A DNA stretch of 64,000 bases from Escherichia coli (GTDB taxonomy: Bacteria; Pseudomonadota; Gammaproteobacteria; Enterobacterales; Enterobacteriaceae), in assembly GCF_030384885.1 (NCBI RefSeq), contig NZ_CP128613.1; one strand, given 5' to 3'. The position numbers and the translations under genes were made by a program. Below, piece after piece: positions 1 to 56,996 of the stretch. Positions within the stretch are counted from its first letter, which is position 1. Each line of letters begins with the position of its first letter. Below the pieces are notes generated by a model. The model did no database searches. It saw only the letters and a list, made by a program, of their open reading frames with translations, and was not told the origin of the DNA.

Positions 1-507
1 GCGTAGAAGTGTGTTGTCCTTCCAGAAATAGTGGTGTGCCAGTGCAGCCGCAGCGTGCAACCCGATGACAAAATATCCCAGATTCGCCAGCGTCTCATGC
101 CACCACTTTAAGCTATCAACCCGTTCGAAATTGGCCTCTGCTGCATAAGGCATTGTCATACCAAACGCAAACCACGGGTTGCCCCGGTTATACATCATCA
201 CCAAACCAATCACTGGCAGCGCAATAAACAGGAGATAAATCACCAAATGTCCCAAATGTGCCAGTCCCGTCATCATCGGTTTTGGTTTAGGTACAATCGG
301 CGGAGTTGGGTATTTAAGCCTTAACAAAAGACGAACAACCATCAGCACGAGAATTGTGATGCCACAGGAAACATGAATCATGTTGATGAGCGGCCGATCG
401 CTACGTGGGAAGAAACCACGAAACTCCATTGCGCAATACGCTGCGATAACCAGCAAAAAGACCAGCCAGTGAATGCCGATTTGTAACCTTGAATATTTAC
501 TTTCCAT
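1..507 (-). CDS. cybB: cytochrome b561, 3' end runs off the window
   Basis: Minus-strand ATG at 507..505; frame stays open to position 1; translation starts MESKYSRLQIGIHWLVF and reaches ...HHYFWKDNTLLR at the window edge. Confidence 0.75.
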   Translation of the reverse strand, partial: MESKYSRLQIGIHWLVFLLVIAAYCAMEFRGFFPRSDRPLINMIHVSCGITILVLMVVRLLLRLKYPTPPIVPKPKPMMTGLAHLGHLVIYLLFIALPVIGLVMMYNRGNPWFAFGMTMPYAAEANFERVDSLKWWHETLANLGYFVIGLHAAAALAHHYFWKDNTLLR

Positions 508-695
508 AACATTTCCTGCTTTAACATAATTTTCCGTTAACATAACGAGCTTTTCTTAAAATTTCATTAAATATTGTTCACCCGTTTTCAGTACGTTACG
601 TTTCACGGCAAGAATGTAGATTGCCCATCCCGCCATCCTGGTCTAAGCCTGGAAAGGATCAATTTTCATCCGAACGTTCCTGACAGGAGAAGACC

Positions 696-1697
696 ATGAG
701 TAAAGTTGGTATTAACGGTTTTGGTCGTATCGGTCGACTGGTGTTGCGTCGATTACTTGAAGTCAAAAGCAACATAGACATTGTCGCTATTAATGATCTC
801 ACTTCCCCAAAAATTCTCGCCTACCTGCTGAAACATGATTCAAACTACGGACCGTTCCCCTGGAGCGTTGATTTTACGGAAGATTCACTTATCGTTGATG
901 GAAAAAGTATCGCGGTTTACGCCGAAAAAGAGGCTAAAAATATTCCATGGAAAGCGAAAGGCGCAGAAATCATTGTCGAATGTACTGGCTTTTATACCTC
1001 CGCCGAGAAATCGCAGGCGCACCTTGATGCTGGTGCGAAGAAGGTGTTGATTTCCGCCCCTGCCGGTGAAATGAAAACCATCGTTTATAACGTCAATGAC
1101 GACACACTGGATGGCAACGACACCATTGTTTCCGTGGCGTCATGCACCACTAACTGTCTTGCACCGATGGCCAAAGCCTTGCACGACAGTTTCGGAATAG
1201 AAGTCGGCACGATGACGACCATTCATGCCTATACTGGCACCCAGTCACTGGTGGATGGCCCGCGAGGTAAAGATCTACGCGCTTCACGTGCAGCGGCAGA
1301 AAATATCATTCCCCACACTACAGGCGCGGCAAAAGCCATTGGTCTGGTGATCCCAGAACTGAGCGGCAAACTGAAAGGTCATGCGCAACGCGTACCCGTG
1401 AAAACAGGTTCGGTGACTGAACTGGTGTCTATTCTTGGAAAAAAAGTGACTGCCGAAGAGGTGAACAACGCGCTTAAAAACGCGACAAACAATAACGAGT
1501 CATTTGGTTATACCGATGAAGAAATAGTCTCTTCTGATATCATTGGCAGCCATTTCGGGTCGGTGTTTGATGCCACGCAAACCGAAATTACCGCCGTGGG
1601 CGATTTACAACTGGTGAAAACGGTCGCCTGGTATGATAACGAATATGGCTTCGTCACGCAGCTTATTCGCACCCTCGAAAAATTCGCTAAACTCTGA
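696..1697 (+). CDS. gapC: glyceraldehyde-3-phosphate dehydrogenase C, intact 333 aa
   Basis: NAD-binding N-terminus [10 protein letters not shown] and active-site SCTTNCLAP; uninterrupted 333-codon ORF. Confidence 0.9.
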
Positions 1698-1738
1698 CGA
1701 GCAAAGGCGGAGGGAAAAGCCTCCGCCTCTTTCACTCA

Positions 1739-3178
1739 TTACGACTGTAAATAAACCACCTGGGTCTGCAGGTATTCATGCAAGCCATGTTTGCCATCTG
1801 CGCCGCCAATACCGGATTTACGCCATCCGGCGTGGAATCCTTGCATAGCTTCGAAGTTTTCACGGTTGATGTAAGTTTCACCAAACTTCAGCCCTTTAAT
1901 AGCTTTCATCGCGACGTTCAGATTTTGGGTATAGAGTGATGAGGTCAGGCCGTAATCACTGTCATTAGCCATTGCGATAGCCTCTTCCAGCGTGTCAAAT
2001 GCGACCACTGGCAGCACCGGGCCAAAGGTTTCCTCGTGCATAATCGACATTTCCTGACGAACATCCAGCAGCAAAGTCGGCGGATAATAATATCCTTTCC
2101 CCTCAACCGCTTTGCCCCCCAACGCTACCCTCGCCCCCTCTTCGACTGCGCGCGCCACTTTTTGCTCGACCCTTTCCAGCGCCGCGGCGTTAATCAACGG
2201 CCCCATCGCAATGTCGTTGCGTTCAGCGGGGTTACCAAATTGAACCGCCTGCATCGCTTCACCCAGCCGATTGACGAACTGATCATAAATGCCTTTCTGT
2301 ACATAAACACGTTCTGCACAGTTACACACTTGCCCACTATTAATGACGCGTGAATCAACGATGGCTTTGACTGCCAGTTCAAGATCGGCATCGTCCATTA
2401 CGATAGCTGGTGCTTTACCACCCAATTCCAGACACACTTTTGTGATATTTTTTGCTGCAGTCGCCATGATCTTTTCACCTGCAGAGACGCTGCCTGTCAT
2501 ACTGACCATTGCGACCTTTGGGTTACCCGCCAGTTCTTGCCCAACGGTTTCACCACGCCCCAGCACAAGGTTAAACACACCGCGTGGAAGGCCTATTTCA
2601 TCGACAATTTTGGCAAAAGCAATCGCATTGTTTGGCGTAAATTCACTGGGTTTAATGACGATGGTATTACCGGTCAAAAGAGCGGGAGCCATTTTGCGGG
2701 CAATGAGGAAGAACGGGAAGTTCCACGGCAGAATGCCGGTAGTCACGCCAAGCGCACGTTTAAAGAGAAGAATATTTTCTCCTGGACGATCGCTTTGAAT
2801 AATCTCACCTTCGTAACGCCGCGCCCACTCTGCCATGTAATCGATATAATCCGCAGTAAATGCCACCTCAACTTCGGCCAGCTGCTGGATCTTGCCCCCT
2901 TCTTCAACAATCAGCGCACTGATTTCACTGGCGCGTTCGCGGATCCCGGCGGCGATTTTGCGCAACCAACTGGCGCGTTCAATGGCAGGCAATGCTTCCC
3001 ATTCTGGCTGCGCGCGCTCTGCGGCGTCGATTGCTTTGCGAGCATCTTCAGCCTGACCATCGGGAATGCGGGAAATCACCGCCTCTGTTGCGGGGTTAAC
3101 CACATCAATCCATGCGTCTCCACGCCAGGTAACAAACTGTCCATCGATATACATAGGATGTTGAACGGGTACTGACAT
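1739..3178 (-). CDS. aldA: lactaldehyde/glycolaldehyde dehydrogenase (NAD-dependent aldehyde dehydrogenase)
   Basis: 479-aa ORF with aldehyde dehydrogenase hallmarks (ELGGKAP, catalytic Cys region GQVCNCAERVYV). Confidence 0.93.
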   Translation of the reverse strand: MSVPVQHPMYIDGQFVTWRGDAWIDVVNPATEAVISRIPDGQAEDARKAIDAAERAQPEWEALPAIERASWLRKIAAGIRERASEISALIVEEGGKIQQLAEVEVAFTADYIDYMAEWARRYEGEIIQSDRPGENILLFKRALGVTTGILPWNFPFFLIARKMAPALLTGNTIVIKPSEFTPNNAIAFAKIVDEIGLPRGVFNLVLGRGETVGQELAGNPKVAMVSMTGSVSAGEKIMATAAKNITKVCLELGGKAPAIVMDDADLELAVKAIVDSRVINSGQVCNCAERVYVQKGIYDQFVNRLGEAMQAVQFGNPAERNDIAMGPLINAAALERVEQKVARAVEEGARVALGGKAVEGKGYYYPPTLLLDVRQEMSIMHEETFGPVLPVVAFDTLEEAIAMANDSDYGLTSSLYTQNLNVAMKAIKGLKFGETYINRENFEAMQGFHAGWRKSGIGGADGKHGLHEYLQTQVVYLQS

Positions 3179-3371
3179 GGGAGACTCCTGTGATTAATGT
3201 GTGTATTTGGTAAATTATTTGTTAATTAATATCAATCATCATAGAGACAGCATCTTGAAAGGACAAATCTGTGAAGAGCTTCATAAAAAGAAGGGTAAAA
3301 GGAATAAAAGGCAGAAAAAAAAGTAAGGAGTCATGCCCGTTTGCAAACAGTTATTCTCAAACGGGCAATTT

Positions 3372-4172
3372 TCAACGTAGCGAACGACTTTCCATCGCCT
3401 CGATAAGCACAGCATCGTGTTTCAGCGTTTGCCATGCCTGGGTGACTTCTGCAGGAAAATCAACGTGAACGATAAAATCTCGCCCACGGGGACCATAGCC
3501 ATCACTATCATCGCGTAAACGTGGCAGCTCGCCAGTGAGTAGTGAGAGATAACGCTCAACCGGCCATAATCCTTCTAACTGGTTAATAAAGATTACACTG
3601 TCTTCGTTGTTTCCTAGCTGAGGAACGAATCCGGGATAACTTAACCAGCGAGGTGCATCTGGATTGTCCCCGGTCATACGGCGGAACGTCGCCATCGTGC
3701 GCCGCTGCATGGTGGGGTCCTGAACAACGATAGCCGTATGAACTCTTTCTACGGCCTGATTCAATAGCGCGATGCTAAAGCGTGCGTTTTCACCGCAGTT
3801 TGTTGACTGGTCTTCAATCCAGATTTTTTCATGCGGAATGTGCCAGAACTGATGAGCGATATCCGCCAGGATGGTAGCTTCTGCTCTGCCAGTGGTGCGG
3901 ATAGTGTTGTAGTGCGGATGCTGTGCGATGGCGCTATACAAAAAAGTTGTCGAGTGACCGATACCACCACTAATCAGTAGAGGAATTTGCTGATCGCGGG
4001 CAATCTTACATGCCGCATCGATAGTCGGTATAACCGCATTGCCTGCAAGGATCACGCAATCGGCCTGATACGGCACCTCACCGGAGAAATCATCCTGCGC
4101 CAGCCACTGACCGATAACATTTATGGCATCTATGGTTGCCGGCGAAAGCGTCGGAAACGGGGTAATGTTCAT
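3372..4172 (-). CDS. ydcF: DUF218-family protein YdcF
   Basis: 266-aa ORF in the syntenic position between aldA and hrpA. Confidence 0.8.
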
Positions 4173-4443
4173 GGTTCCTCCTTATCGTTCCCTTAAGAAT
4201 ACTGCGTGAGATAATAATGAGAAGCGGAGCACTCTGAAAGGAGGAAGTCGTATTTCCTTAACCGCCACTCCGCAAGCCTGACATATCTTTTAAGGAAATG
4301 CTGTAGATAAACATTATTCATCTTGCAGCAGAGAATTGTATTTTTCTGAATTCCTGAATTTTTGCCCTTACCGTTTTAGAATTAATAAAAAACCCGGCGC
4401 TAAATGCTTACCGGGTTTTAGATTTATCAGGCAAATAGCAGCG

Positions 4444-7400
4444 TTAACCGCTAATCTGCTCCATCGCCTGTAGAATACGCTTATCTGAAATCGGATAAGG
4501 TGTACCGAGTTGTTGGGCAAAATAGCTGACGCGCAACTCCTCTATCATCCAGCGTATCTCTTTCACGTCTTCATCCTCACGACGTGCAGGCGGCAGTTTG
4601 TTGATCCATTGCTGCCACGCCTGCTGGACGTTTTCAACTTTCAGCATCTGAGCACGGTCACGGTGCGGGTCAACCGCCAGTTTTTCCAGACGCTTTTCAA
4701 TCGCCTGCAAATAACGCAGCGTGTCGCCCAGGCGTTTGAAGCCATTACCAGTGACAAAACCGCGATACACCAGCCCACTCATCTGCGCTTTAATGTCAGA
4801 AAGCCCCAGCGCCATGGTCATATCCACCCGCCCTTTCAGGCGTTTGTTGATATTGAACACCGCCGTAAGGATTTGCTCTACCTGCTTCGCAATATCCACC
4901 ACCGTGTCGTTCAGTTCAGCGCGGACTTTTTCATGAAGCGCAGCAAAGCCCTCTTCCGTCCAGACCGGGCCGCCCGCCTCATCAATCAACTTATCAACAC
5001 CGCAGGAGATGCAGTCGTCAATGAGATCCAGCACTTTACCGTACGGGTTAAAGTAGAGACCAAGCTTCGCTTTGTTCGGCAGTTTCTCATGCAGATATTT
5101 AATTGGCGACGGAATATTCAGCAGCAGCAAGCGACGCAAACCACGCCACATAGCCTGCTGTTGTTCCTGCGGGTTATCAAAAAGCTTAATCGCTACGCTG
5201 TCACGCTCATCCACCAGCGCAGGCCAGGCCTTCACTTTGTAGTTGCCACGTTTCTGCTCGTAGTGATCCGGTAAATTACCGAAGCTCCAGATATGTAACC
5301 CGCTTTGCTCAATACCATCATCGGCAACGGCGGAAAGCGTTTCCTGCACTTTGCCTTTCAGGGCGTCTTTCAGATCCTGTAATGAGCGCCCTTCTTTTAG
5401 CTTCTTATTTTTGTCATCCACCACACGGAAGGTGATTTTCAGGTGATCGGGCACCTGATCCCAGTGCCAGTCTTCGCGGTCAACGGTAACGCCGGTCATC
5501 CGCCGTAGCTCGCGCTCAAGGCTGTCGAGCAACGGCAGTTCCAGCGGCGTGACGCGACCTAAAAACGCTTCGGCGTAGTTTGGCGCGGGCACAAAATTAC
5601 GCCGTACCGGTTTCGGCAACGATTTGATTAGAGCAATCACCAGTTCACGGCGCAGGCCGGGGATCTGCCACTCAAACCCGCTTTCCTCAACCTGGTTAAG
5701 TAATGGCAGCGGAATATGCACGGTCACACCGTCAGCATCCGCCCCCGGCTCAAACTGATAGCTTAAACGCAGCTTGAGATTGCCCTGATGCCAGAAGTTC
5801 GGGTAATCCAGCTTGCTGATTTTTTCCGCCCCTTCTTTGATCAACATGCTCTTTTCAAAGTTGAGCAAATCAGGTGTTTCGCGGCTGACTTTTTTCCACC
5901 AACTATCAAAGTGACGTGCAGAGATCACATCATGGCTGATGCGCTGGTCGTAAAACTCAAACAACGTTTCGTCATCCACCAGAATATCGCGGCGACGTGA
6001 TTTGTGTTCCAGTTCTTCCACTTCTGCCCGTAGTTTCAGGTTTTCACGGAAGAATGCGTGACGCGTCTGCCAGTCACCTTCCACCAGCGCGTGGCGAATA
6101 AAAAGTTCACGACACAGCGCCGGATCAATCTGGCTGTAGTTGACCTTACGCGCAGCAACAATCGGCAACCCGTAAACGGTGACTTTTTCAGTTGCCATCA
6201 CCGCGCCCTGCGCCCGTTCCCAGTGCGGTTCGCTGTAGGAGCGTTTAATCAAATGCTGGGCAACTGGCTCTACCCATTCTGGATCGATGCGTGCCGCAAT
6301 GCGCCCCCACAGGCGGCTGGTTTCTACCAGTTCCGCCACCATTGCCCATTTCGGCGGCTTCTTGAATAAACCAGAACCGGGGAAGATGGAGAAACGCGCG
6401 TTACGTGCGCCGGTATATTCCTGTTTATCGGCATCTTTCATCCCGATATGCGAAAGCAAACCGGTCAGTAAGGCGATGTGAATTTCGCGATACTCCGCCG
6501 GTTCGCTGTTAACCGGAATGCCAAGTTCTTTCACCACCTGGCGCAACTGGGTGTAGATGTCCTGCCATTCGCGCACGCGCAGATAGTTAAGGTAATCGGT
6601 ACGGCAAAGGCGACGGAAGGCGTTTGAAGAGAGCGCCTTTTGCTGCTCGCCGAGATAATTCCACAGATTTACAAACGCCAGGAAGTCGGATTCTTTATCG
6701 TGGAAGCGACGATGTTTTTCGTCCGATGCCTGCTGCTTGTCCATTGGCCGCTCACGCGGGTCCTGAATAGAGAGCGCGGAAGTGATAATCATCGCCTCAC
6801 GCACGCAGCCATGTTTCTGCGCTTCCAGCACCATTCGCGCCAGACGAGGATCGACTGGCAGTTGCGAGAGCTGGCGACCGAGCGGCGTCAGTTTATAGGC
6901 GCTGGCCTGTTCATCAGTGGTGATCGCGCCCAGCTCTTCGAGCAGACGCACGCCATCCTGGATATTGCGTTTATCCGGCGCTTCTACAAACGGGAACGCA
7001 GCGATATCGCCCAGCCCCAGCGCGGTCATCTGCAAAATAACCGAGGCCAGGTTGGTACGCAGAATCTCCGGATCGGTAAACTCCGGGCGCGAGAGGAAAT
7101 CGTCTTCGGAATAAAGACGAATGCAGATCCCTTCTGACACACGACCACAGCGGCCTTTACGCTGATTAGCTGAAGCCTGCGAAATGGGCTCAATCGGCAA
7201 ACGCTGCACTTTGGTGCGATAGCTGTAGCGGCTGATACGCGCCGTACCTGGGTCGATAACGTATTTAATCCCCGGCACGGTCAGCGACGTTTCCGCGACG
7301 TTAGTCGCCAGCACAATGCGCCGTCCGCTGTGCGACTGGAAGACGCGGTTCTGCTCGCTGTTCGAAAGCCGTGCATAAAGCGGAAGAATTTCCGTATGGC

Positions 7401-8346
7401 GTAAGTTCAGCTTGTTCAGCGCATCGGCGGTATCGCGAATTTCTCGCTCGCCGCTCATAAAAATCAGAATGTCGCCGGGGCTTTCCTGGCTCAGTTCGTC
7501 TACGGCGTCAAAAATCGCCTGCAACTGGTCGCGCTCGGTGTCATCAGCTTCTTCAACAATCGGGCGATAGCGCACCTCCACCGGATAGGTACGACCGGAG
7601 ACTTCGATAATCGGCGCATTATTAAAGTGGCGCGAAAAGCGTTCCGGGTCGATAGTCGCGGAAGTGATAATGATTTTTAGGTCAGGACGCCGCGGCAGCA
7701 ACTCTTTCAAATAACCGAGGAGAAAATCGATATTCAGGCTACGTTCGTGCGCTTCGTCAATAATGATAGTGTCGTACTGCATCAGCAGGCGGTCTTGCTG
7801 GATCTCTGCCAGCAGGATACCGTCGGTCATCAGTTTGACCATCGTGTTATCACTGACGTGATCGCTGAATCGGACTTTATACCCGATGCAACCGCCCGGC
7901 TCCGTTTTCAGCTCTTCCGCGATCCGGTTCGCCACCGTTCGTGCCGCCAGACGACGCGGCTGGGTATGGCCGATCAGCCCTTTAATCCCGCGCCCCAGCT
8001 CCATACAGATTTTCGGTAGCTGAGTCGTTTTACCGGAACCCGTTTCCCCGGCGACGATCACCACCTGGTGATCACGGATTGCTTCGAGAATGTCCTGCTT
8101 TTTCTGACTAACCGGCAAATTGTCTGGATAAGTGATTTCCGGTCGTGCTGCTTCACGCAGCAGGACTTTCCCTGCCGCCTGGTCAATCTCTTTCGCCATC
8201 TCCTGGAAAATGGCCTGTTGTGCATCAGGATTTTTAACCTTCTTCACACCATGCAGACGGCGGGAAAAACGCAGTCTGTCACGCAGCATCAGCGAATCCA
8301 ACCGTTGCTGCAAGGCCGTAAAGGTCAATTTTTGTTGTTCTGTCAT
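4444..8346 (-). CDS. hrpA: ATP-dependent RNA helicase HrpA (DEAH-box)
   Basis: 1300-aa ORF; Walker A GETGSGKTTQLP, DEAH box IIIDEAHERS, motifs SAT and QRKGRCGR. Confidence 0.95.
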   Translation of the reverse strand: MTEQQKLTFTALQQRLDSLMLRDRLRFSRRLHGVKKVKNPDAQQAIFQEMAKEIDQAAGKVLLREAARPEITYPDNLPVSQKKQDILEAIRDHQVVIVAGETGSGKTTQLPKICMELGRGIKGLIGHTQPRRLAARTVANRIAEELKTEPGGCIGYKVRFSDHVSDNTMVKLMTDGILLAEIQQDRLLMQYDTIIIDEAHERSLNIDFLLGYLKELLPRRPDLKIIITSATIDPERFSRHFNNAPIIEVSGRTYPVEVRYRPIVEEADDTERDQLQAIFDAVDELSQESPGDILIFMSGEREIRDTADALNKLNLRHTEILPLYARLSNSEQNRVFQSHSGRRIVLATNVAETSLTVPGIKYVIDPGTARISRYSYRTKVQRLPIEPISQASANQRKGRCGRVSEGICIRLYSEDDFLSRPEFTDPEILRTNLASVILQMTALGLGDIAAFPFVEAPDKRNIQDGVRLLEELGAITTDEQASAYKLTPLGRQLSQLPVDPRLARMVLEAQKHGCVREAMIITSALSIQDPRERPMDKQQASDEKHRRFHDKESDFLAFVNLWNYLGEQQKALSSNAFRRLCRTDYLNYLRVREWQDIYTQLRQVVKELGIPVNSEPAEYREIHIALLTGLLSHIGMKDADKQEYTGARNARFSIFPGSGLFKKPPKWAMVAELVETSRLWGRIAARIDPEWVEPVAQHLIKRSYSEPHWERAQGAVMATEKVTVYGLPIVAARKVNYSQIDPALCRELFIRHALVEGDWQTRHAFFRENLKLRAEVEELEHKSRRRDILVDDETLFEFYDQRISHDVISARHFDSWWKKVSRETPDLLNFEKSMLIKEGAEKISKLDYPNFWHQGNLKLRLSYQFEPGADADGVTVHIPLPLLNQVEESGFEWQIPGLRRELVIALIKSLPKPVRRNFVPAPNYAEAFLGRVTPLELPLLDSLERELRRMTGVTVDREDWHWDQVPDHLKITFRVVDDKNKKLKEGRSLQDLKDALKGKVQETLSAVADDGIEQSGLHIWSFGNLPDHYEQKRGNYKVKAWPALVDERDSVAIKLFDNPQEQQQAMWRGLRRLLLLNIPSPIKYLHEKLPNKAKLGLYFNPYGKVLDLIDDCISCGVDKLIDEAGGPVWTEEGFAALHEKVRAELNDTVVDIAKQVEQILTAVFNINKRLKGRVDMTMALGLSDIKAQMSGLVYRGFVTGNGFKRLGDTLRYLQAIEKRLEKLAVDPHRDRAQMLKVENVQQAWQQWINKLPPARREDEDVKEIRWMIEELRVSYFAQQLGTPYPISDKRILQAMEQISG

Positions 8347-34080: not shown

Positions 34081-34596
<516 letters not shown>

Positions 34597-34602
34597 CACT
34601 AA

Positions 34603-34629
34603 CGCCCGCACATTGCTGCGGGCTTTTTG
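34603..34629 (+). terminator. uspF intrinsic terminator
   Basis: Hairpin cccgcacattgctgcggg followed by CTTTTTG. Confidence 0.7.
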
Positions 34630-34771
34630 ATTCATTTCGCAAATGTGCTGACATTTTCCCCTCTAATCCGTACCATACACGCCACAGTTTTTATATCAGA
34701 TTTCTTATGCTGGGCGTTCCGGCATGACGCATACTCTTCTGATGCCATATAACGAATTGAGTCGCTTTTAA

Positions 34772-35707
34772 ATGTCGCAAAATCAAGAAATTAGTAAGAA
34801 AGAACAATACAATCTGAACAAATTACAAAAACGTCTGCGTCGTAACGTGGGCGAAGCCATTGCTGACTTCAATATGATTGAAGAAGGCGATCGCATCATG
34901 GTTTGCCTCTCCGGGGGTAAAGACAGCTATACCATGCTGGAGATTCTGCGCAATTTGCAGCAAAGCGCGCCAATCAATTTTTCGCTGGTGGCTGTTAACC
35001 TCGATCAAAAGCAACCGGGCTTCCCGGAACACGTTCTGCCCGAGTATCTTGAAAAGCTGGGCATTGAGTACAAGATTGTGGAAGAGAACACTTACGGTAT
35101 CGTGAAAGAGAAGATTCCGGAGGGCAAAACCACTTGCTCACTGTGTTCTCGTCTTCGTCGCGGAATTCTTTACCGTACCGCAACGGAACTGGGAGCGACG
35201 AAGATCGCGCTGGGTCACCATCGTGACGATATCCTGCAAACGTTGTTCTTAAATATGTTCTACGGCGGCAAGATGAAAGGTATGCCTCCGAAACTGATGA
35301 GCGATGATGGCAAACATATTGTGATTCGTCCGCTGGCCTACTGCCGCGAGAAAGATATTCAGCGCTTTGCCGATGCAAAAGCGTTCCCGATTATTCCGTG
35401 CAACCTGTGCGGTTCACAACCTAACCTGCAACGTCAGGTGATTGCTGACATGTTGCGTGACTGGGATAAACGTTATCCGGGGCGTATCGAGACGATGTTC
35501 AGCGCGATGCAGAATGTGGTGCCGTCGCATCTGTGCGATACCAACCTGTTCGATTTCAAAGGCATTACCCACGGTTCTGAAGTGGTTAACGGGGGTGATC
35601 TGGCGTTTGATCGCGAAGAGATCCCTCTACAACCGGCGGGTTGGCAGCCTGAAGAAGATGAAAATCAGTTGGATGAGTTACGACTGAATGTGGTTGAAGT
35701 GAAATAA
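34772..35707 (+). CDS. ttcA: tRNA 2-thiocytidine(32) synthetase TtcA, prophage-free allele
   Basis: 311-aa ORF with PP-loop SGGKDS and Cys motifs; the N-terminus [14 protein letters not shown] differs from the recalled K-12 Rac-lysogen form MQENQQITKKEQYN. Confidence 0.9.
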
Positions 35708-50676: not shown

Positions 50677-52290
50677 TCAATGTTTCACAATATACATAGT
50701 CCGGCTATACGCCACATCTTCCGGGTTATTAATGGGATAACCTTTCAGCCACGGCTTGATTAATCGTCCATTGGTATATTGATAAATTGGTGCAATCGGT
50801 GCTTGCTCCATGAGGATTTTTTCTGCCGCGTTGTAATCGGCATTACGCGCTTTAACGGTATTTTCCGTCGATGCCTGGGCCAAAACTTTGTCGTAGGCCG
50901 GGTTGTTAAAACGTGAAATGTTCCCTGAATGCGTTGACGTTAATAATGTCAGGAAGGTGGAGGGTTCATTATAATCCCCCACCCACGAGGCGCGGATAAC
51001 ATCAAAATTACCTGTATTACGACTATCGATATAGGTTTTCCATTCCTGATTTTGCAGTTTGACATCTACACCAAGGTTCTTTTTCCACATCGATGCCACA
51101 GCAATCGCAATTTTTTGATGGTTTTCTGAAGTATTATACAAAAGCGTCAGCTTCAGCGGTTTTTGCGGACCATAACCGGCTGCGCTCAACAAAGTTTTTG
51201 CCTGCGCATTCAGTTCTTCCTGACTCATTTGTTCAAACGGCGAAGGCTCCGGCGTGAATCCGGCAGTAACATCTGGCGTAAAATGCCACGCTGGTTTTTC
51301 GCCCGTCCCCAACACTTTTTCGGTCATCAGGCGGCGATCTATCGTCATACTTAATGCCAGACGAACGCGCTGATCTGCCGCCGGCCCTTTTTGCGTGTTA
51401 AACGCATAATAATAGGTCCCGAGCTGCGGCGGTGTATAAACCTGCCCCGGAATATCCTTCAACAGCTTCTGATACATATTTTTGGGGAAGGATTCGGTGA
51501 TATCAATATCCCCCGCGAGATAACGCTTAGTGGCTGCGGATTCCTGATTAATTGGCAGGAAGGTCACTTTTTGCAACACCGTTTTGGCGTTATCCCAATA
51601 ATGAGTATTTGGCACCACGACCAGTTTTTCATTGACTACACGCTCTTTAAGAACATAAGCGCCATTGCCGACCAGATTTCCGGGTTTCGTCCACTCTTTC
51701 CCGCTTTCTACGTTAGCTTTTTGCACCGGGAAGAAGGCAAAATTGGCTGTTAAATTCACAAACCACGGCAACGGTTTATCAAGCTGGATTTTCAAAGTAC
51801 GGGCATCAACCGCGGTGACGCCTAGCTGATCAGGCGTAGCTTTACCATCAATAATCGCCTGTGCGTTGTTGATTCCCGCCAGCGCGGCAAACCAGGCAAA
51901 CGGCGACAACGTTTTTGGGTCAACCAGACGTTGCCAGCTGTAGACAAAATCCTGTGCCGTTACCGGTGTGCCATCCGCCCATTTTGCGTTATCGCGCAGG
52001 GTGAAAGTCCAGATACGGTTGTCATTACTTTTCCACTGAGTCGCAACGCCGGGGACAATCTCCCCTTTCTCGTTCTGATTCACCAGTCCTTCAAAAAGAT
52101 CGCGAATGACCTGAATCTCTGGCAGACCCACGGCTTTAGCGGGATCCAGCGACGCAGGCTCATCTTTAATATGGCGCACCAGCTCCTGCTTCTCTGCCAG
52201 TACTGTGCCGCTCGGAACTTCTGCAGCATACGAAAGAGAAATGCTGCTGACCAACAGCGCACAACACGTGACTGAAACAGAGTGCTTCAT
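50677..52290 (-). CDS. mppA: periplasmic murein tripeptide-binding protein
   Basis: 537-aa ORF with signal peptide; family-5 solute-binding protein, OppA paralogue. Confidence 0.93.
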   Translation of the reverse strand: MKHSVSVTCCALLVSSISLSYAAEVPSGTVLAEKQELVRHIKDEPASLDPAKAVGLPEIQVIRDLFEGLVNQNEKGEIVPGVATQWKSNDNRIWTFTLRDNAKWADGTPVTAQDFVYSWQRLVDPKTLSPFAWFAALAGINNAQAIIDGKATPDQLGVTAVDARTLKIQLDKPLPWFVNLTANFAFFPVQKANVESGKEWTKPGNLVGNGAYVLKERVVNEKLVVVPNTHYWDNAKTVLQKVTFLPINQESAATKRYLAGDIDITESFPKNMYQKLLKDIPGQVYTPPQLGTYYYAFNTQKGPAADQRVRLALSMTIDRRLMTEKVLGTGEKPAWHFTPDVTAGFTPEPSPFEQMSQEELNAQAKTLLSAAGYGPQKPLKLTLLYNTSENHQKIAIAVASMWKKNLGVDVKLQNQEWKTYIDSRNTGNFDVIRASWVGDYNEPSTFLTLLTSTHSGNISRFNNPAYDKVLAQASTENTVKARNADYNAAEKILMEQAPIAPIYQYTNGRLIKPWLKGYPINNPEDVAYSRTMYIVKH

Positions 52291-52472
52291 AAGTTACCCT
52301 CAAACCTGCGTTAATAATCATGCGTAATTATTTGTTTCGCCTTAAAGAAATGCAAACAACTTCCGGCAAAAAAGTGATACAAGATCGATAACATAGCGTT
52401 GAAGAAAAGGATTTGATAATCCGCAAAATTTGCACAACACTGCCTGTAATACTTCCTGAACCAGAGACGATC

Positions 52473-53201
52473 ATGACCGTAACTCGCCCACGCGCCGAAC
52501 GCGGCGCATTTCCGCCCGGTACAGAACATTACGGACGTTCATTATTGGGCGCGCCTTTGATCTGGTTTCCGGCCCCAGCCGCCAGTCACGAAAGTGGTTT
52601 GATTCTGGCTGGCACCCACGGTGATGAAAACTCTTCGGTCGTGACCCTCTCCTGTGCTCTGCGGACATTGACACCGTCTTTGCGCCGCCATCATGTGGTG
52701 CTGTGTGTGAATCCTGACGGCTGCCAGTTAGGGTTACGGGCCAATGCTAATGGCGTGGATTTAAATAGAAACTTTCCGGCAGCAAACTGGAAGGAAGGTG
52801 AAACGGTTTATCGCTGGAACAGCGCCGCTGAAGAACGTGATGTCGTTTTACTGACAGGTGACAAACCTGGCTCCGAACCTGAAACTCAGGCGCTGTGCCA
52901 GCTTATACATCGCATTCAACCTGCCTGGGTGGTCTCATTCCACGATCCACTGGCCTGTATTGAAGACCCCAGACACAGCGAATTAGGTGAATGGCTGGCC
53001 CAGGCGTTTGAATTGCCACTGGTCACCAGCGTCGGTTATGAAACGCCTGGCTCTTTCGGCAGTTGGTGTGCGGATCTCAACCTGCATTGCATCACCGCAG
53101 AGTTTCCGCCCATCTCCTCCGACGAAGCCAGCGAAAAATACCTCTTTGCGATGGCTAACTTGCTGCGCTGGCATCCTAAAGATGCAATGCGCCCGTCGTG
53201 A
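52473..53201 (+). CDS. mpaA: murein peptide amidase A (M14 zinc carboxypeptidase family)
   Basis: 242-aa ORF starting MTVTRPRAERG; contains HGDE (AGTHGDENSS). Confidence 0.88.
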   Translation: MTVTRPRAERGAFPPGTEHYGRSLLGAPLIWFPAPAASHESGLILAGTHGDENSSVVTLSCALRTLTPSLRRHHVVLCVNPDGCQLGLRANANGVDLNRNFPAANWKEGETVYRWNSAAEERDVVLLTGDKPGSEPETQALCQLIHRIQPAWVVSFHDPLACIEDPRHSELGEWLAQAFELPLVTSVGYETPGSFGSWCADLNLHCITAEFPPISSDEASEKYLFAMANLLRWHPKDAMRPS

Positions 53202-54259: not shown

Positions 54260-54763
54260 ATGTCACAAACCGTTCATTTCCAGGGCAACCCGGTTACAGT
54301 CGCCAATTCCATCCCGCAGGCGGGTAGCAAAGCGCAGACTTTTACTCTCGTGGCAAAAGATCTGTCTGACGTCACCCTCGGTCAGTTTGCGGGTAAACGC
54401 AAAGTGCTGAACATTTTCCCGAGTATTGATACCGGTGTTTGCGCCGCATCAGTACGTAAGTTTAACCAACTGGCAACCGAGATCGACAACACCGTTGTGC
54501 TGTGTATCTCTGCCGATCTGCCGTTCGCCCAGTCTCGTTTCTGCGGCGCAGAAGGTCTGAACAACGTTATCACCCTCTCCACTTTCCGTAACGCTGAATT
54601 CCTGCAAGCCTACGGTGTGGCAATTGCTGATGGCCCACTGAAAGGTCTGGCAGCGCGTGCCGTTGTGGTTATCGATGAAAATGACAATGTGATTTTCAGC
54701 CAGCTGGTTGATGAAATCACCACCGAGCCGGATTACGAAGCAGCTCTGGCTGTACTGCGCTAA
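54260..54763 (+). CDS. tpx: thiol peroxidase
   Basis: 167-aa [20 protein letters not shown]... with peroxidatic Cys (SIDTGVC). Confidence 0.95.
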
Positions 54764-54778
54764 ACAACTGTGCCGTTC

Positions 54779-54818
54779 ACTGAATCACCACCGGTGAACG
54801 GCAGTTTTTGATCTACCA
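54779..54818 (+). terminator. tpx intrinsic terminator
   Basis: Hairpin gccgttcac...gtgaacggc followed by AGTTTTTG. Confidence 0.7.
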
Positions 54819-54907
54819 GTCCCATTATTTTCCAGAGTTCCTGCCACTATTCCCCCTAACCGTTGTGCATTAAGATTGCTCTTTGCCATTATTGGCCCAG
54901 CGGAGTG

Positions 54908-56959
54908 ATGACTATTATGGATGATAAACAAATTACGGTCTGGCTTAAACACAATTGCTGTTCAACGGACATTCCTGCCATTGCCGAGGCACTAACGAAC
55001 CATGCAGAATGGCTTTTAGAGCTAGCGCCAGATCCTATTGAACAAGGTTGTTCATGTTTACCGCCGACAGCTGCAGCCGGTATTTTTCTTGGCGCAGCGG
55101 CGATGGTTCACTGCGGCGAGGCTAGTGGTGCAGAAACCTGGCTCGAAGCAGCCATTACTGATTACCATTTCTTTAATCCAAATGGATATAGTTCATGGAG
55201 AGGCAGTACGCCTGTTTTTACAGCATTATCGCGTTACCCGGCATTAAGAATGGTGTTATTTAACGCCGCTTGCGCAATGGAAGACTGGAATAAAGCATCC
55301 GCTGTTCTTGAATCGCTTTTCCATGCCAGCGATGTAACGGAAGATAACCCTGTCGCCCCCAATTTTACCCCTTATGCGCTGAAAGCGTTTATCGCGGATT
55401 ACCACCCGTTAGGGCCTGCTTATTATGATGAAACCTGGTTGCTGGCAAAACAAGCGTGGTTAATTAATGCGGGCGTTCTGGATGAGCGAACCTGTAATAC
55501 CTGGAAGCAATATACCCGCCATTTGCGCCATTTGATCCATAATGCACAGTTTTCCGATGCGATCTCTTTTGTACGCAGTAAAAAAGAACCATTAAATCAT
55601 ATCCATACCTACTCAGACTTTTATCTCTATGCGATTGGTTTATTTTCTTCTACTGATCAGCTAAGTGAAGCGCTAACCTGGGTAAAACAATTAATCCGCA
55701 ACAATGATGGTCATTTCCATGATCTTTTCGTTTCAACTGGCGCAAAGCGCCGAATAAAGCCTGAACTTAGTACCTTGCTGAATAATCTCTTGTACAGCGC
55801 AGAGTTTCAGGCGTTGCAGGATAAATATCTCACCGTCGGACATGATGTTGTGCATTCTGGTCCCTTCATGTCACTTTATGAAAAGGTTCTTGGCGGTAAG
55901 TCCCGAAAGCGCTGCGCGATTAGTCGAAAATTAATCTCACCCGGCGAAGCGGTTTATGAATATCGTCAGCTGGATAGTGTGGAATATATTGCAGCGAAAG
56001 CGGCCTTTCAGACATCTGAGCTAAATAATATCGCCCACCGGCATCATAATGATAGTTATCAGTGGCATGAATTTGCCGTCCAATGGCCTCGTCGGGGTTC
56101 ACTTTCTCACCCAGATATTGCCCGTTATTTGTTTGAGCGCCAGGAAGGAAAATGCTTTGATGCCGCAGAGTTTATACAACTGATTGCGGAACCGTTTGTC
56201 TTTCCGATGCGTTTCATATGGGTTGCCGGGTTGTCCTTTGAATTACATCAGTATCCGGATGCCTATTTCGTAAATGACAATATGGCGGGTGAATTTGTTA
56301 ATCTCTGCTGGATGGCTATGAAATGCGGACATGCTGGCGACATTTTCAAACAACTGGCCCACGAGCCGCATGACGTTGCTGACCCTATTTACGCCATGCT
56401 CGCCACGTTTGACCGCGCTGATTGCCGTAGCGCCGCCGCCGCGCACTTTGGACAACCGGAACTACCGGAAATAATGGCACTGGCTTTCAGTTCGAGGTTA
56501 TCGCTCGACAGCGTCCTTACCATCGCTGAGTTTGGTAAAAATCAGCCGCGATTTTCACATGCGCTAGCAACGGCCCTCCTGCGTTACAACCTGCACATCT
56601 ACTCAAACTATATGCCGCAGGTTAACTGGTACCTTCAGGGGCTGGAACACTATGCTTTGGCAAAAGGCGGTCAACTTTTAAATTTCTTTGTGCATATTCC
56701 AGAACAAATTCCCGTTCTGGCGACCATGCTGGAACATGGCGTATTAGTGCGTGGGATCGGTGAAGGTGCCTATGATGGTTATGATAATTCAGCAAATTCA
56801 TTTCATCATGCCGCCGTGATGCACTGCCTCACGCACGCGCCGGAAAAAGTCCGCTACTGGATGGAAACACCCTGGATTCAGAACTATTTAGTGAATGCGC
56901 CGCTGCGTCAAACGGCGCGCCATGTGGAAGCCTGGCATAAAAAGTTTGGCATCAAATGA
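54908..56959 (+). CDS. uncharacterised ~680-aa protein encoded between tpx and tyrR; no family recognised
   Basis: Uninterrupted frame 54863..56959 (TTG at 54863; likely ATG at 54908 or 54917, with GGAG at 54902). No signal peptide, TM segment or Walker A seen; His/Cys-rich patches (HNCCSTD, GCSCLPP, RHLRHLIHN, HRHHNDSYQWHEF, KCGHAGD). Confidence 0.7.
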   Translation: MTIMDDKQITVWLKHNCCSTDIPAIAEALTNHAEWLLELAPDPIEQGCSCLPPTAAAGIFLGAAAMVHCGEASGAETWLEAAITDYHFFNPNGYSSWRGSTPVFTALSRYPALRMVLFNAACAMEDWNKASAVLESLFHASDVTEDNPVAPNFTPYALKAFIADYHPLGPAYYDETWLLAKQAWLINAGVLDERTCNTWKQYTRHLRHLIHNAQFSDAISFVRSKKEPLNHIHTYSDFYLYAIGLFSSTDQLSEALTWVKQLIRNNDGHFHDLFVSTGAKRRIKPELSTLLNNLLYSAEFQALQDKYLTVGHDVVHSGPFMSLYEKVLGGKSRKRCAISRKLISPGEAVYEYRQLDSVEYIAAKAAFQTSELNNIAHRHHNDSYQWHEFAVQWPRRGSLSHPDIARYLFERQEGKCFDAAEFIQLIAEPFVFPMRFIWVAGLSFELHQYPDAYFVNDNMAGEFVNLCWMAMKCGHAGDIFKQLAHEPHDVADPIYAMLATFDRADCRSAAAAHFGQPELPEIMALAFSSRLSLDSVLTIAEFGKNQPRFSHALATALLRYNLHIYSNYMPQVNWYLQGLEHYALAKGGQLLNFFVHIPEQIPVLATMLEHGVLVRGIGEGAYDGYDNSANSFHHAAVMHCLTHAPEKVRYWMETPWIQNYLVNAPLRQTARHVEAWHKKFGIK

Positions 56960-56967
56960 ACGTTGCC

Positions 56968-56990
56968 GCTGCGCCTGAACGGCGCAGCCA
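56968..56990. terminator. bidirectional hairpin between the convergent unknown ORF and tyrR
   Basis: gctgcgcc tgaac ggcgcagc perfect inverted repeat. Confidence 0.5.
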
Positions 56991-56996
56991 GCACAA

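Follow-up and report, generated by a model that had tools for sequence, protein, structure and literature searches.

A strain-variable 680-codon gene between tpx and tyrR of Escherichia coli encodes a candidate orphan immunity protein of an apparently undescribed family

Introduction

Immunity proteins, and the polyimmunity loci in which they gather, are known for SUKH proteins, for ankyrin and HEAT repeats, and for fusions of tetratricopeptide (TPR) or ankyrin (Ank) repeats (PMC3482391). TsiV (DUF3396) has been shown experimentally to be the immunity protein of the TseV VRR-Nuc nucleases of type VI secretion systems (T6SS) (PMC9635880), and the site between yegQ and t0737/STM2135 holds the "Salmonella acquired interbacterial defence islet", described together with a Paratyphi C variant by Barretto and Fowler (PMC7400221). 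Here, we analysed a stretch of 64,000 nucleotides from E. coli (contig NZ_CP128613.1 of assembly GCF_030384885.1; hereafter, the window), in which a gene for a 680-aa protein (54917..56959, + strand) occupies the interval between tpx and tyrR.

From the letters of the window alone, an original prediction had taken this gene for a strain-variable single-gene insertion into a core interval, following the pattern of defence and toxin–immunity genes. That proposal is borne out by the rarity of the gene (0.6% of the genomes surveyed), its clean replacement of the native spacer and its lower GC content; moreover, its homologues recur in toxin–immunity islands. The gene is absent from K-12, is not part of the core genome and has no assigned function. 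We tentatively suggest, with a probability of roughly 0.45, that its product is a cytoplasmic, stand-alone "orphan" immunity-type protein taking part in the arms race over interbacterial toxins.

Homologues in toxin–immunity islands

In five independent lineages, a homologue of the 680-aa protein resides in a toxin–immunity island, in the company of the established immunity families TsiV (loci L002 and L035), Tli4_C (L009 and L011), SUKH_6/SMI1_KNR4 (L031 and L037) and DUF1963 (L037). In L035, a proteobacterial metagenome contig of 58% GC, a full-length homologue of 30% identity is the last gene of a polymorphic array (1-8000). A PAAR-like toxin with TsiV comes first; two or more orphan toxin C-terminal cassettes follow, every one of them paired with a separate TsiV, and the array also holds one truncated TsiV fragment. 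Each cassette begins at a common PAAR-like tail or recombination motif, MEGKPVTRLTDRML, and the ATG of the homologue lies 1 nt past the stop codon of the last TsiV.

In Salmonella enterica (L002-L005), the homologue is located 2.4 kb from an orphan TsiV, amid small secreted open reading frames (ORFs) and debris of the insertion sequence (IS) IS1. The flanks of this locus, a gene for a 453-aa U32 peptidase and a DUF4034 gene of ~700 aa, match yegQ and t0737/STM2135. The islet of L002 (1-17878), with its TsiV, family gene and IS1 fragments, fits neither the published Typhi nor the published Paratyphi C gene list and, judged by gene content, looks like a further variant of the yegQ islet. In the Paratyphi C islet, the Rhs gene SPC1575 is closely followed by SPC1576, a gene labelled "TPR" and published without its sequence; SPC1576 might belong to the family, and its neighbour would then supply a cognate toxin.

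Next to hrpA in two other Enterobacterales (L009 and L011), the homologue is followed by genes for a Tli4_C lipoprotein, for an ankyrin protein of the periplasm and for three lipoprotein paralogues in tandem. The Tli4_C gene is intact in one of these loci and broken in L009, where the family gene is intact. The tandem lipoproteins (L009 13321-15971, L011 10148-12287), each of ~280 aa, share 28-35% mutual identity, give a faint RHS_repeat signal and match no Pfam family; they may constitute another undescribed periplasmic immunity-like family. In L031, a low-GC contig, a DKNYY protein is encoded upstream of the homologue and a SUKH_6/SMI1_KNR4 gene starts 7 nt downstream, while on a Sinorhizobium plasmid (L037) the homologue lies near two SMI1/KNR4 and two DUF1963 genes.

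In an enterobacterial metagenome contig (L006 3305-7484), the family gene lies between ydcY and ydcZ, downstream of another copy that is closer to the Salmonella one and broken into ORFs of 358 and 344 aa; this is a tandem paralogue pair of which one copy is decaying. A conserved operon partner was considered and rejected: the upstream ORFs of L006 are the split second copy, and the alphaproteobacterial neighbours are unrelated housekeeping genes. Toxin domains were found neither in the ORFs directly upstream of the family gene in L002, L009 and L011, nor in the cassette ORFs of L035, whose sole matches were weak ones to the PAAR-like tail.

Family membership

The 680-aa protein has no match in Pfam, NCBIfam, PADLOC, PHROGs or the PDB sequences; in particular, 0 families of the PADLOC-DB v2 defence-protein models were recovered at E <= 1, and likewise 0 PHROGs families. 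A word-indexed search of 5.8 billion proteins returned eight clusters, which represent E. coli, Salmonella enterica and other Enterobacterales at 49-59% identity. An exhaustive HMMER search of 1.84 billion representatives yielded 91 matches (35 at E<1e-30), some of them full-length (~680-720 aa, 25-40% identity) and others shorter (~500 aa), without part of the N-terminus. Full-length homologues persist across phyla at 25-60% identity, the family being spread over Proteobacteria, Bacteroidota, Listeria, Leptospira and others. Named sources are Rhizobium, Azorhizobium, Roseomonas, Reyranella, Methylobacterium, Pigmentiphaga, Saltatorellus, Rapidithrix, Desulfovibrio, Rikenella, Leptospira and Listeria. 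Copies were found in none of 50,697 phage records, in none of the IMG/VR contigs and in one of 72,556 plasmids.

Every homologue in the databases is labelled "hypothetical" or "uncharacterized", two of them with an added DUF4034 label, and Foldseek against AFDB50 matched only uncharacterised family members. Among 48 aligned members, the only Pfam domains are N-terminal ankyrin repeats in two proteins. Membership of DUF4034 (PF13226) was rejected, as neither the window protein nor the 48 members match this Pfam family and the label is confined to two Rhizobium-type AFDB/UniProt homologues. Homology to the neighbouring DUF4034 protein of Salmonella was rejected as well (hhalign against the family profile, probability 0.1%), and a literature search on DUF4034 returned nothing. 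By these searches, the protein family is undescribed.

Distribution, alleles and decay within E. coli

In a survey of 5,426 complete genomes of E. coli, 32 (0.6%) carried the insert and 5,414 matched its flanks; counted by match type, the full-length segment was matched in 30 genomes and the flanks only in 5,409. Every carrier has it on the chromosome, at the tpx-tyrR site. The copies form two allele groups ~6% apart, one of 16 genomes that are 96.6-99.4% identical to the window and another of 16 at ~94%. Up to 10 of the 32 copies are broken: in six, the annotation shows two ORFs in place of one, with a +1 A frameshift at ~nt 263 in the one that was inspected, and four carry IS600. The window copy and 21 others are intact.

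Between the window allele and the second E. coli allele, dS is 0.13 and dN/dS is 0.32, and dN/dS between the window gene and its Salmonella homologue is 0.155. The ratio stays below 1 in all four quarters of the gene, with the N-terminal half showing about twice the dN of the far C-terminus; for comparison, dN/dS of tyrR is ~0.01. Because dN/dS is below 1 in all quarters, the intact copies are maintained by selection, if loosely when compared with tyrR. Degenerate orthologues, which the original prediction had held out as the mark of a decaying remnant, do occur in E. coli, but the copy in the window is intact and the family is under purifying selection.

Protein architecture and conserved residues

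The protein consists of three modules. Residues 1-305 (54917..55831, + strand) form an N-terminal, all-helical solenoid that appears TPR-like; this is the faster-evolving half, is replaced by ankyrin repeats in some relatives, and is the only part matched in a profile search of the PDB. It is followed by a small beta subdomain (residues ~317-375; 55865..56041, + strand) with the motif LGGKxxKRCxxSxxxIxPGxxVYRxR, and by a conserved C-terminal helical domain (residues ~399-680; 56111..56956, + strand) with the motifs KCG (470-471) and YxLHLYSNYxPxxNW (557-571). The helical domain has no relative among solved structures. The AlphaFold2 (AF2) model shows an all-soluble helical and small-sheet fold, in which the C-terminal 370 residues are confidently modelled. 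Stand-alone proteins of ~225-250 aa from Leptospira and Rikenella match at high TM-score and are probably the far C-terminal helical domain on its own, because short representatives of 200-240 aa match residues ~450-655.

Conservation across the family centres on C333, G343, R350, P399, G471 (invariant), F498, Y557, H560, Y562, S563, N564, W571 and W648. The His/Cys-rich patches pointed out in the original prediction exist in the window protein but are not conserved in the family, the partial exception being C470 (29 of 48 members), which is the Cys of the KCGHAGD patch and adjoins the invariant G471. A metal site formed by these patches was rejected on this ground. The conserved Cys and His residues, C333 (45/48) and H560 (43/47), both fall outside the patches.

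The beta subdomain has a PARP-zinc-finger-like fold devoid of zinc ligands. When compared with zf-PARP (PF00645), the window protein is without three of the four CCHC zinc ligands, has no Pfam match and aligns with hhalign at E=0.23, so that a relationship to zf-PARP is unconfirmed at the sequence level.

The gene and its insertion site

The original prediction had described an uninterrupted frame (54863..56959) between the tpx terminator hairpin and a palindrome, and all three are present. Within this frame, ATG 54917 is the likely start codon of the 680-codon gene. It is preceded by GGAG at 54902-54905, and the PGAP annotation places the same start in strain 2013C-4282, which is 99.4% identical (WP_106907512.1, "hypothetical protein"); the second E. 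coli allele has ATT in place of the alternative upstream ATG 54908. Records of the exact window protein exist on 58 contigs, under the name "hypothetical protein" (for example, CAD6063418.1), and inspection of the translated sequence revealed neither a signal peptide nor a transmembrane segment.

With a GC content of 47.2% and a GC at third codon positions of 44.9%, the gene is more AT-rich than the flanking mpaA, ycjG, tpx, tyrR and ycjF (51-57% and 51-60%, respectively), just as had been predicted for tpx and tyrR. The accompanying impression of unusual rare-codon use did not hold up, with a rare-codon fraction of 3.1% in the gene versus 3.3% in tyrR. Upstream of the gene, a promoter search gave nothing above background.

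Alignment with a K-12 derivative delimits a strain-variable segment of 2,239 bp (54758..56996, no strand assigned), which stands in place of 52 bp of K-12-type sequence, namely the last two codons and stop codon of tpx and a 43-bp spacer. As stated in the original prediction, tpx and tyrR are direct neighbours in K-12: in the K-12 derivative and ~5,400 other genomes they adjoin each other, and in the former they are separated by this 43-bp gap with one hairpin common to both genes. On the right, homology to K-12 resumes exactly at the stop codon of tyrR (56997-56999), which is convergent to the 680-codon gene. On the left, tpx (54260-54763) lies upstream of the gene, and its intrinsic terminator (54771..54809, + strand), a stem-loop followed by T5, is carried on the inserted segment; its stem arms (54771-54780 and 54794-54803) extend to a 12-bp stem when folded (-20.6 kcal/mol, z -4.5).

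The predicted palindrome shared by the gene and tyrR is real. Situated between their stop codons (56968..56988, no strand assigned), it has an 8-bp stem and a 5-nt loop and folds into a hairpin on both strands (-19.7 and -22.2 kcal/mol), with no U-tract.

No IS ends, target-site duplication or Rfam element were found at the insert. There is a 12-nt imperfect inverted repeat (11/12), with CTGTGCCGTTCA at 54768-54779 and TGAACGGCGCAG at 56976-56987, each copy ~10 nt inside one end of the insert and within a hairpin; it could be due to chance or be a relic of the insertion mechanism.

When the window allele is compared with the second insert-carrying allele (L019), dS is 0.205 for tyrR, 0.13 for the insert and only 0.049 for tpx. 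The tyrR flank (56997-58538) is thus unusually divergent for E. coli between the insert-carrying alleles, which fits homologous recombination that brought in the gene along with adjoining DNA from a divergent lineage of Escherichia.

A second rare structural variant occurs in the window, where mppA directly adjoins mpaA (50677-53201, junction ~52290-52473); the contiguous junction is present in only 173 of the 5,426 genomes, most of which share no more than ~95% identity with the mppA part. In K-12, ycjY and pgrR lie between the two genes. As this variant is 2.5 kb from the insertion, the entire stretch from mppA to tyrR may belong to a divergent haplotype. Farther away, uspF and ttcA are adjacent (34162-35707, by the annotation of a near-identical strain), a junction that is the empty attachment site of the K-12 Rac prophage. 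An intact 5.5-kb autotransporter gene is found at the ydbA position (~17395-22932); the ydbA of K-12 is interrupted by IS elements.

Discussion

Being found next to toxin and immunity genes in five unrelated lineages, the family described here is, by guilt by association, best read as one of orphan immunity-type proteins. If so, the protein would protect its carrier from a toxin domain that competitors deliver into the cytoplasm via T6SS, Rhs, contact-dependent inhibition (CDI) or related systems. The variable N-terminal solenoid, TPR-like here and ankyrin-based in relatives, would capture the toxin, and the conserved C-terminal domain would serve as the core neutralising module. A toxin acting in the cytoplasm fits the lack of a visible signal peptide or transmembrane segment and the all-soluble AF2 fold. 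Because homologues occur in the Gram-positive Listeria, the specificity would be for the toxin domain rather than for the secretion system. Our leading guess for the cognate toxin is TseV or another nuclease of the PD-(D/E)xK class, because the family gene co-occurs with TsiV in two independent cases, L035 and Salmonella.

An orphan immunity function would explain why the gene is linked as tightly as in an operon to TsiV, SUKH and Tli4-like genes of lineages far apart, as well as the union of a variable solenoid with a conserved core. It would also account for the absence of any signal for defence systems and phages. Further traits of orphan immunity genes that such a function would explain are the sporadic occurrence across phyla, the tandem duplicate split in one genome, the decay of up to 10 of 32 E. 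coli copies, and an evolution that is rather rapid yet purifying.

Several observations weigh against this interpretation. A toxin gene directly upstream, the hallmark of a cognate immunity gene, is missing: no recognisable one lies immediately upstream of the family gene in any of the ~16 distinct contexts (in L035, TsiV intervenes), and no family member was seen directly downstream of a toxin. The protein, with its 680 aa, three modules and strong conservation of the C-terminal core, far exceeds typical small immunity proteins in size and is unlike them. Finally, ~11 of the ~16 contexts are solitary insertions amid housekeeping genes (tpx-tyrR in E. coli, malM-ubiC and ydcY-ydcZ in other genomes, several alphaproteobacterial chromosomes and further contigs), and co-location with immunity genes could stem partly from common integration hot spots.

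This last point leads to the rival that survives best, albeit as an unlikely one, namely that the protein is an accessory cytoplasmic scaffold, regulator or enzyme unrelated to toxins, which has accumulated in hot spots common to immunity genes. The solitary contexts beside ordinary metabolic or transport genes speak for it, as do the generic nature of TPR and Ank modules and a set of residues (C333, R350, D415, R504, R527, H560, S563 and N564) that could form an active site. It does not, however, readily account for the operon-like distances at which immunity genes lie from the family gene (1 nt for TsiV, 7 nt for SUKH, 65 nt for Tli4_C), or for toxin–immunity neighbours in five lineages ranging from Bacteroidota-like to Enterobacterales, which is far above the expectation for such rare families.

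We consider it improbable that the gene encodes a single-gene defence protein against phages or mobile elements, composed of a TPR sensor and a novel effector domain. Such a role would suit a strain-variable island of one gene that is flanked by core genes, has a lower GC content, is often lost and encodes a sensor domain of the repeat type, and one distant homologue lies ~5.5 kb from the type I restriction subunit HsdR. Yet the protein has no PADLOC match and contains none of the known effector domains, such as an ATPase or nuclease; its family is absent from phages and prophage-like contigs, and the genes around it serve interbacterial immunity and not restriction, CRISPR or abortive infection (Abi).

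A variant of the immunity interpretation, to which we likewise give little credence, is that the family represents a new, broad-spectrum kind of immunity working without a cognate toxin partner. Its C-terminal module might recognise or repair the damage or DNA structures hit by structure-specific TseV/VRR-Nuc T6SS nucleases, or inactivate these nucleases enzymatically. The module in question would comprise the zinc-less PARP-finger-like subdomain and the helical domain, and would carry the conserved C333, H560 and YSNY motif. Independence from a partner would explain how the gene is selected on its own where the genome has no effector to match.

Even harder to sustain is the idea of a secreted effector, be it the cargo toxin of a T6SS or a TPR/Ank effector aimed at the host, with the downstream Tli4-like or SUKH gene as its immunity partner. 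Its size of ~680 aa and want of a signal peptide suit a cargo effector, many carriers are host-associated, and in L011 and L031 a known immunity-type gene does follow directly. In E. coli, L012, L016 and L035, however, no gene downstream could fill this role, and most other loci likewise have no such partner, which this idea hardly explains. The protein also has neither the alpha/beta-hydrolase fold nor the GxSxG nucleophile of a Tle4-type T6SS lipase effector that a Tli4 partner would call for, Tli4_C proteins are periplasmic, and in L009 the Tli4_C gene is broken next to an intact family gene. VgrG, Hcp or adaptor genes are not adjacent to the family gene, and Listeria, a genus without T6SS, has family members too.

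That the gene is a functionless remnant on its way out is barely credible: the frameshifted or IS600-interrupted copies, the absence of the gene from 99.4% of genomes and the lack of a strong upstream promoter have to be set against 22 copies intact over 2 kb, the window copy included, a dN/dS of 0.15-0.32 and the full-length homologues across phyla.

If the orphan immunity reading is correct, an undescribed and structurally novel family joins the interbacterial immunity proteins in pathogenic E. coli and Salmonella lineages. In that case, an orphan immunity gene can stand by itself amid core genes and so escape searches that look for islands. With a confident model but no solved relative, the C-terminal 370 residues offer a target for structural and mechanistic work, and the repeated link to TsiV provides a concrete candidate class of toxin.

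Among described systems, the family most resembles the orphan immunity genes of the Salmonella islet SAIDI-1, of the acquired interbacterial defence (AID) clusters of Bacteroidales and of the Zhang-Aravind polyimmunity loci (PMC7400221, PMC3482391, bioRxiv 10.1101/471110). With these, it has in common strain-variable presence, horizontal acquisition, the lack of a cognate toxin, tandem paralogues, frequent pseudogenes, and a place amid TsiV, Tli4-like, SUKH and DUF1963 genes. In contrast to the defence islets, the E. coli gene stands alone rather than in an array, and its family is absent from the described Imm families and from Pfam. TsiV (DUF3396, PF11876), whose gene directly adjoins the family gene in L035 and lies 2.4 kb from it in Salmonella, is cytoplasmic as well, but differs in size and fold and is unrelated in sequence: PF11876 matches neither the window protein nor the 48 members. 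Repeat-based immunity proteins (Imm-ank, HEAT-repeat and TPR/Ank-Imm fusions; PMC3482391) likewise join an alpha-solenoid to a second domain and occur in heterogeneous immunity loci; unlike in those proteins, it is an undescribed 370-residue domain that is conserved here and the solenoid that varies. With SAIDI-1, the family shares the very site, its Salmonella homologue residing at the same yegQ locus.

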